From contig JBGFRO010000047.1 of NCBI GenBank assembly GCA_041695085.1, forward strand, positions 10,080-74,079: a stretch of 64,000 bases of DNA, in the 5' to 3' direction. The translations under genes and the position numbers were made by a program. This document shows, piece after piece, positions 59,410 to 59,525 of this stretch (position 1 is the first letter of the stretch; every line of letters starts with the position of its first letter). Below the pieces are notes generated by a model that had not been told where the DNA came from, did not search any database, and saw only the letters and a program-made list of their open reading frames with translations. The DNA comes from Bacteroidota bacterium (GTDB lineage: Bacteria; Bacteroidota; Ignavibacteria; UBA10030).

Positions 59410-59525
59410 CCCAATTCTGGAAATTGCTCCTTCTTACGTTATCACTTATGGGAATGCCGGAATCCTTTGATCCCGTAAGTTACGCTATTTCAATTCGTTT
59501 GAGGGATTCCTATGTTTGCGAATTC

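Follow-up and report, generated by a model that had tools for sequence, protein, structure and literature searches.

A conserved 16-bp dyad at sigma-54 promoters as the putative enhancer of an NtrC-type regulator in an Ignavibacteria-like bacterium

The 64-kb stretch of DNA analysed in this work, referred to here as the window, belongs to contig JBGFRO010000047.1 of an Ignavibacteria-like source organism and carries two promoters of the sigma-54 (−24/−12) type, one upstream of an operon for a sensor kinase and an NtrC-type regulator (P1) and the other upstream of the gene of a stand-alone helix-turn-helix (HTH) protein of 88 amino acids (aa) (P2). The same 10-mer, TGGGAATGCC, is found in front of both. 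Footprinting across around 17 related lineages indicated that the conserved unit is a 16-bp imperfect palindrome, TTCYMA-N4-TGRGAA, and, judging from the aligned sequences, the 10-mer is the right half-site of this palindrome, TGGGAA, plus four unconstrained flanking bases. Dyads of this type precede both transcription units, with centres at about −137, −105 and −37 in the case of the kinase-regulator operon and at about −137 and −105 in that of the 88-aa HTH gene. Located upstream of the sigma-54 promoters, they probably constitute an enhancer used by the NtrC-type regulator encoded next to them (we give this reading a probability of roughly 0.7). A concrete and testable enhancer motif is thus available, tandem TTCYMA-N4-TGRGAA at about −137 and −105, and the search pattern is corrected at the same time, since almost none of the real sites would be retrieved by searching a genome for the 10-mer.

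Relatives of the locus were collected by a kinase homolog search, by look-ups of the encoding contigs and by a metagenome scan with the HTH alignment, giving about 17 distinct lineages with 64–95% kinase identity. The cluster of PDZ-domain protein, kinase, regulator, 88-aa HTH protein and 63-aa protein genes was syntenic in many Ignavibacteria-like metagenome lineages, and the multihaem cytochrome gene was also found there in the closer relatives. The regulator was 85–98% identical across the four sub-clade lineages compared, with the HTH stretch LGVSLSSLYRKMEEL identical in all four of them, and the SLSSLYRK core of this HTH was retained in the distant lineages L122 and L123; since the HTH of the regulator is conserved, its DNA site should be conserved as well, and the invariant dyad matched this expectation. 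Two sets of sequences were left aside. The species-level genomes L001-L014 (54–68% regulator identity) were too distant for footprinting; they keep the kinase-regulator pair without a sigma-54 promoter before the kinase, and a separate HTH gene is present only in L007. Contigs L081-L090, with an identical HTH protein, came from the same strain, had 0 mismatches to the window and added no variation, and they reach about 3.9 kb beyond the window end.

Both promoters presented a perfect match to TGGCAC-N5-TTGC (GG-N10-GC) on the forward strand, at a suitable distance from a start codon, and both were conserved. P1 (TGGCACGTACCTTGC; 59526..59540) lies 54 nt before the kinase ATG, and a similar −24/−12 element occurred at an equal distance from the ATG in L091, L094, L099, L116, L117, L097, and L119, the weakest equivalent being that of L099 (8/10), and was absent from more distant lineages. 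P2 (TGGCACATTCCTTGC; 62555..62569) lies 55 nt before the start codon (ATG) of the 88-aa HTH gene; its TGGCAC and the −12 stretch TCCTTGC were invariant in the 13 aligned lineages, and the promoter was also found in L122 and L123. A separate observation concerns the leader of this promoter in L091 (L091:7992-8158, corresponding to 62570–62609 of the window), where an insertion of around 127 nt between P2 and the HTH start codon makes it 182 nt long vs. 55 nt in the window, with the promoter and both dyads unchanged.

The aligned upstream regions diverged elsewhere than at the dyads and the promoters. In the regulator-HTH intergenic region (13 lineages), the only invariant blocks were TTCTAA (62436–41), TG.GAA (62446–51), TTC (62468–70), and the −24/−12 element, and in the region preceding the kinase (alignment A3; eight lineages) TT (59439–40), GGGAA (59450–54), ATTC..A....T..G.A (59506–22), and the promoter were invariant. 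Conservation was 0.78–1.0 in the half-sites of the dyads and 0.50–0.60 in their 4-nt spacers, and conserved half-sites with a free spacer are, as a sequence pattern, the signature of a dimeric HTH site. The profile of 98 half-sites from 17 lineages read T (0.98), G (0.63), A/G (0.62/0.36), G (0.92), A (0.86), A (0.97). The palindrome therefore has the dyad symmetry of a site for an enhancer-binding protein (TTCYMA-N4-TGRGAA). An earlier reading of P2 as TGGGAA-N16-TTCYCA was replaced by two 16-bp dyads once N4 partners were seen at both promoters.

The whole window was scanned with a symmetrised position weight matrix (PWM) built only from the P2 dyads of the lineages other than that of the window. 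Starts of the dyads were measured from the T of TGGCAC, and this T was taken as −26 in order to express the centres relative to the inferred transcription start. The five dyads of the window ranked 1, 2, 5, 7, and 8 in the 64 kb. The two at P2 were dyad A (TTCTAAAGAGTGGGAA, TTCTAA-AGAG-TGGGAA; 62436..62451; score 17.3, rank 1; start −119, centre about −137.5), with a right half-site that is formed by the first 6 nt of the second copy of the 10-mer, and dyad B (TTCTCATTTTTGAGCG, TTCTCA-TTTT-TGAGCG; 62468..62483; score 17.0, rank 2; start −87, centre about −105.5), which starts 32 bp, around three helical turns, after dyad A; their high ranks were to be expected because they are orthologous to the training set. 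The three dyads at P1 are outside this set and all lie within about 115 bp, between an intrinsic terminator and the promoter. They comprised a weaker distal site, dyad 1 (TTCCCAATTCTGGAAA; 59408..59423; score 9.6, rank 8; start −118, centre about −136.5), dyad 2 (TTATCACTTATGGGAA, TTATCA-CTTA-TGGGAA; 59439..59454; score 12.3, rank 5; start −87, centre about −105.5), whose right half-site coincides with the first six bases of copy 1 of the 10-mer, and the promoter-proximal dyad 3 (TTCCTATGTTTGCGAA, TTCCTA-TGTT-TGCGAA; 59507..59522; score 10.5, rank 7; centre about −37.5), which ends 3 nt before TGGCAC.

Positions relative to the promoters were maintained among lineages. Dyad 2 of P1 had a counterpart at −86 to −88 in all eight lineages having P1, and dyad 3 was placed at exactly −19 in 8/8 of them, with scores of 7.9–20.5; the equivalent of dyad 1 scored 13.6 in L091 and 7.4 in L117. 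At P2 the dyads started at −119/−87 or at −129/−97 in the 15 lineages scanned, the pair shifting by around 10 bp (one helical turn) as a unit; in the more distant L122 the pair was found at −116/−86, and in L123 the distal dyad, at −121, was the only one reaching the threshold, dyad B being kept in the 15 lineages and in L122. The start-to-start spacing of the pairs, 31–32 bp, corresponds to three helical turns and keeps both dyads in helical phase, and the starts in the window (−118/−87 for P1 and −119/−87 for P2) fall at the distance of enhancers, roughly 80–150 bp upstream of the −24/−12 element.

Dyads were conserved in orthologous promoters, and it was promoters of the sigma-54 class, not those of other classes, that they accompanied. 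Of the dyad matches scoring ≥10 in L120 and L121, two loci of 21 kb, 6/7 and 5/6, respectively, were located upstream of the three sigma-54-type promoters, none of which lacked a dyad. Where the kinase operon of a lineage has a promoter of another type, the dyad pair was missing at that place as well. Regarding these other promoters, the kinase operon of L104/L106, L108, L110, L122, and L123 is preceded by a look-alike of the Bacteroidetes-type promoter, TTG ... TAnnTTTG (e.g., GTTGGCGTACCTTTG). Given the promoters of these distant lineages, positive autoregulation seems to be a recent acquisition of the sub-clade of the window.

A third promoter with a dyad was located outside the window. The dyad TTCTAAAAAGTGGGAA (L082:9530-45; score 19.1) is found 69 bp upstream of the sigma-54-like element TGGAACACTACTTGC, which in turn precedes a pyruvate:ferredoxin oxidoreductase gene; L082:9530-9613 corresponds to window coordinates of about 67139–67222, on the same contig and around 3 kb past the end of the window. 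At this site, the position of the 10-mer reads TGGGAATTTC. Promoter and dyad were kept in L120 (−69), L121 (−66), and the distant L123 (−74), the dyad reading TTCCCAGGAATGGGAA, a perfect palindrome, in L121 and TTCTCATTACTGAGAA in L123. The oxidoreductase is probably a core target of the system. The minimal predicted regulon would then include the own operon of the regulator, the small HTH protein with its membrane partner, and pyruvate:ferredoxin oxidoreductase, in a poorly studied and mostly uncultured phylum.

The preliminary description of this DNA had proposed the 10-mer itself, embedded in elements of about 50 bp flanked by inverted repeats, as a candidate recognition sequence for the NtrC-like activator and for the HTH paralog. 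Its observations on the sequence were all reproduced: exact copies of TGGGAATGCC on the forward strand at 59449..59458 (the TGGGAA half-site plus the flank TGCC) and 62446..62455, the GG of the −24 element 78 nt (P1) and 110 nt (P2) downstream of the starts of the 10-mers, inverted repeats CTTACG/CGTAAG at 59433–38/59474–79 and ATGCCCCTC/GAGGGGCAT at 62451–59/62490–98, and no copy before a third, weak sigma-54-like element, CGGCATATAACTTGC, at 63355–69. These are the only two exact copies within the window. The statistical argument of that description, by which chance would hardly produce such a 10-nt match in 64 kb, was wrong as stated. When the 200-bp upstream regions were shuffled 5000 times with dinucleotides preserved, the P1/P2 pair had a common word of 10 nt or longer in 7.7% of the cases considering both strands and in 4.7% on the same strand, and any pair among the three promoters did so in 23.5%; moreover, 5716 distinct 10-mers occurred at least twice in the window, and seven matches to TGGGAATGCC with one mismatch were found vs. 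4.2 expected. The shared 10-mer by itself is within chance and constitutes weak evidence. This would fit an explanation in which the 10-mer and the surrounding similarity have arisen fortuitously and lack regulatory meaning, which we regard as the least credible of all, as the comparison among lineages already contradicts it: neither the TGGGAA core nor its partner half-site varies, in contrast to the diverging flanks, the distance to the promoter is fixed, and the element recurs at a third promoter. Significance comes only from these comparative data and is attached to the 16-bp dyad, not to the 10-mer.

That the full 10-mer within its 50-bp, repeat-flanked element is what is recognized appeared very improbable, in spite of its two exact copies at an enhancer-like distance. 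Conservation per position was 0.88, 1, 1, 1, 1, 1, 0.75, 0.38, 0.25, and 0.38 in the first copy and 1, 1, 0.77, 1, 1, 1, 0.85, 0.46, 0.92, and 0.62 in the second one, so that the T at position 7 is moderately conserved and, at P2, positions 7 and 9 (C) reach 0.85 and 0.92. Taken as blocks, the TGGGAA columns were conserved at 0.96–0.98 and the trailing TGCC at 0.44 (P1) and 0.71 (P2); TGCC was present in only 5/98 half-sites, positions 7–10 being near background overall. L091, the closest other lineage (95% kinase identity), kept TGGGAATGCC at P1 and read TGAGAACGCG at P2, and thus the exact identity of the 10-mer at both promoters is strain-specific. The exact 10-mer was absent from the orthologous promoters of all lineages other than L091, and across 119 loci two copies were found only in contigs of the same strain and one in the L091 lineage; TGGGAATTTC at the oxidoreductase site also argues against the full 10-mer. 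Single matches in L034, L114, and L115 were discarded as unrelated, that of L114 lying in coding-like sequence (a GGNAL motif, in our reading). Furthermore, the two copies in the window occupy non-equivalent sites, the −87 dyad at P1 and the −119 dyad at P2. The flanking repeats did not hold either, as their arms were not maintained in orthologous regions: arm conservation was 0.44/0.65 at P1 and 0.72/0.50 at P2, and in L091 the arms CTCGCT...CGCAAA (P1) and ACGCGCCTC...GGGAGTGT (P2) are not complementary, both repeats having been lost; a 6-nt arm pair is trivial by chance. In L123 (4763–4789), the distal dyad of the HTH promoter is the extended palindrome GGCATTCCAAGTACTGAGAATGCC, with the TGCC extension on both arms, which is the only hint that bases 7–10 might sometimes contribute. 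What remains of the proposal is the presence of conserved cis-elements at enhancer distance from sigma-54 promoters, beside the genes of an NtrC-type activator and of an 88-aa paralog of its DNA-binding domain, so that it was right in direction as to the candidate binders, the unit being the 16-bp dyad.

A different explanation accepts the dyads and assigns them to the 88-aa HTH_8 protein, as operators of an autoregulator or of a Fis-like architectural protein, the regulator using another site or none. The HTH gene is always beside the best-conserved dyad pair, its product carries a complete NtrC4-like DNA-binding domain, and, at P1, the promoter-proximal dyad (−19) resembles a repressor site more than an enhancer. 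We consider this explanation unlikely, as upstream of P2 there is, besides the promoter, no other conserved block that could serve as the enhancer of the regulator, the dyads go strictly with sigma-54 promoters and are missing from kinase operons with promoters of another type, and their spacing and −137/−105 geometry match classical activator sites; in addition, the regulator and the 88-aa protein share the recognition helix, so binding by one of them alone would not be expected. Several points weigh against taking the dyads as the enhancer of the regulator. They are assigned to it, rather than to its 88-aa paralog or to both, by adjacency and domain logic; we infer which protein would bind them and the sign of the regulation, whereas their conservation, geometry, and association with sigma-54 are observed. 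No rpoN gene (no open reading frame with an RpoN box) was found within the window. Dyad 1 of P1 is weak (9.6) and falls below the threshold in three lineages (L094, L099, and L116), the oxidoreductase promoter, whose −24 element is TGGAAC, shows a single clear dyad, placed at another distance (−66 to −74), and the lineages compared are related, so that their counts are not independent events. Single dyad scores are neither unique in the window nor remarkable as compared to random sequence of 64 kb (top scores around 13.8, 11.7, 10.6, and 9.9), although the clustering of three matches in one 115-bp stretch is not unremarkable, as three of the six matches that do not belong to the training set are confined to 0.2% of the window (probability around 1e-7, by our rough estimate). 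Stray dyad-like sequences were found at 28670–28685 (TTCTCAAATTTTCGAA; 15.2) and 29928–29943 (TTCTCGCGCTTGAGAA; 12.5), inside long open reading frames and without a sigma-54 promoter nearby, and are probably chance matches. Finally, the weak element at 63355–63369, upstream of the gene of a multihaem cytochrome with a type IX secretion system (T9SS) tail, is kept in relatives as YGGCAYA-N4-TTGM and has no TTCYMA-N4-TGRGAA dyad (best score 5.2). Other conserved blocks, TGCGAA and palindromes of the TTGCA...TGCAA kind, are present in relatives in the region corresponding to 63220–63350. Given the lack of a dyad and the presence of these blocks, the cytochrome element is probably served by a different regulator.

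If the dyads are the enhancer of the regulator, the PAS kinase would phosphorylate the regulator and promote its oligomerisation, regulator dimers would bind the tandem dyads 31–32 bp (three helical turns) apart, and DNA looping would bring the AAA+ ring to the sigma-54 RNA polymerase at TGGCAC-N5-TTGC. Binding of paired DNA-binding domains to at least one upstream activating sequence, with looping to the sigma-54 polymerase, is the standard mode of action of enhancer-binding proteins (PMC7175178). The expected outcome would be positive autoregulation of the two-component operon together with induction of the pair formed by the HTH and membrane proteins and of the oxidoreductase. As for the dyad nearest to the operon promoter (start −19, centre about −37), it would probably limit or repress expression and is a candidate autoregulatory "governor."

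The 88-aa HTH gene is the most widely conserved predicted target of the two-component system. As the 88-aa protein has the same recognition helix as the regulator, it may occupy the same dyads. A tentative extension, to which we give clearly lower odds than to the enhancer itself, is that it does so as a decoy or anti-activator (negative feedback) or else as a looping factor of the Fis/IHF kind, and that the regulon links the cytoplasmic PAS sensor to the oxidoreductase. Were this the case, the 88-aa protein would be a built-in competitor on every target, including the promoter-proximal dyad of the kinase-regulator operon, or, in the alternative role, a looping factor dedicated to the regulon, and the latter would tie a cytoplasmic PAS sensor to the expression of pyruvate:ferredoxin oxidoreductase in Ignavibacteria. 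A stand-alone paralog of a DNA-binding domain placed under the enhancer of its parent makes a neat and testable circuit.

The closest parallel is found in Escherichia coli, where the NtrC enhancers of glnAp2 (sites I and II) are located at −140 and −108. The system in the window resembles it in having two dyads around three helical turns apart (about −137/−105) upstream of a GG-N10-GC promoter, sites presumably bound by dimers of a REC/AAA+/HTH_8 regulator (here predicted from sequence), and the own operon of the regulator among the targets. Besides the two enhancers, glnAp2 displays NtrC sites of low affinity close to the promoter, with centres at −89, −66, and −45, which modulate its output (PMC5159524), and the additional promoter-proximal dyad of P1 is comparable to these sites (III-V). 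In contrast, the half-site is TGRGAA with a 4-nt spacer, vs. TGCACC-N5-GGTGCA for NtrC, the phylum is Ignavibacteria-like and the sensor is a soluble PAS-PAS kinase, and the predicted targets are a small HTH protein and pyruvate:ferredoxin oxidoreductase instead of nitrogen-assimilation genes.

In NCBIfam, the kinase and the regulator matched AtoS and AtoC of E. coli best, and the domain order is the same. For AtoC, too, the binding site is an inverted repeat that lies upstream of a sigma-54 promoter. However, scores were well under the equivalog cutoffs (297 bits vs. 646 for AtoS and 470 bits vs. 714 for AtoC; NF008468/NF008469), and both the targets and the sequence of the site differ; for these reasons, the two proteins are not considered orthologs of AtoS/AtoC. 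As for the 88-aa protein, it aligned over the whole HTH_8 core with the DNA-binding domain of NtrC4 from Aquifex aeolicus and, like Fis, is a free-standing relative of the NtrC-type C-terminal domain; unlike them, its gene is directly downstream of the parent regulator and behind a sigma-54 promoter with the presumed enhancer of this parent, and the protein carries a short extension at the N-terminus and an acidic tail at the C-terminus. Literature searches yielded nothing relevant on sigma-54 regulation in Ignavibacteria or on stand-alone HTH_8 paralogs of enhancer-binding proteins. Apart from these differences the architecture is textbook NtrC-type, and this is an uncharacterised sigma-54 two-component system in Ignavibacteria.

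The order of the genes, from Pfam and NCBIfam, is PDZ-domain protein, kinase, NtrC-type regulator, 88-aa HTH_8 protein, 63-aa membrane protein, and multihaem cytochrome. The kinase (59580..60989, forward strand; 469 aa) is a cytoplasmic, soluble protein with PAS-PAS-HisKA-HATPase domains according to Pfam, and the regulator (60986..62359, forward strand; 457 aa) is a bacterial enhancer-binding protein with REC, sigma-54 AAA+, and HTH_8 domains. The 88-aa protein (62610..62876, forward strand) passed the gathering score of Pfam HTH_8 (43.7 bits vs. a cutoff of 22; E = 2e-11). It was 46% identical to residues 407–454 of the regulator, with the SLSSLYRK helix common to both, and, on this resemblance, is taken to be a paralog of the DNA-binding domain of the regulator. 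The solved structure closest to it was the DNA-binding domain of Aquifex NtrC4 (3E7L/4FTH; E = 5e-5). Its family includes around 120 clusters, with homologs of 59–144 aa (most of them 73–95 aa), whose annotations are generic only, none of them being characterised. The 63-aa predicted membrane protein (62946..63137, forward strand) has a single hydrophobic stretch, located N-terminally, and its C-terminus (KNFGAFPPDIPETEFDGVNFLY) is strongly conserved. Neither Pfam nor NCBIfam gave a family match for it. Its gene is kept directly 3' of the 88-aa HTH gene in most of the lineages examined, except L122 and L123, and appears to be co-transcribed with it. None of the four proteins (kinase, regulator, HTH protein, and 63-aa protein) received a name at equivalog level from NCBIfam, and an Rfam search of 59250–63600 returned no match.

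The first gene upstream of the kinase operon is that of the PDZ-domain protein (58309–59307), and its intrinsic terminator hairpin (59376..59402, forward strand; an 11-bp perfect stem followed by T8) sets the upstream boundary of the first regulatory region. A long hairpin followed by a T-run, read from the sequence, was present after the 63-aa gene, at 63167–63217. The secreted, T9SS-tailed multihaem cytochrome is encoded from 63507 onwards. Another perfect TGGCAC-N5-TTGC, the third in the window, was found on the reverse strand at 52102–52116, antisense inside a 1578-aa fn3-repeat open reading frame; no dyad accompanied it on its upstream side (scores of −1.9 at most), and L121, where a comparable large fn3-repeat protein is encoded upstream of the cluster, showed no counterpart. 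This match is probably fortuitous, about 0.1 such matches being expected by chance in the window by our estimate. Beyond the end of the window, three small genes for proteins of 116, 114, and 87 aa lie between the cytochrome and oxidoreductase genes (L082:8357-9384). The 116-aa protein is weakly response-regulator-like and the 114-aa protein resembles DksA/TraR zinc-finger proteins, both NCBIfam matches being far under the cutoffs, and the 87-aa protein is encoded beside them. Small genes of similar sizes occupied the same place between cytochrome and oxidoreductase in L120 and L121, the likeness being one of size and position only.

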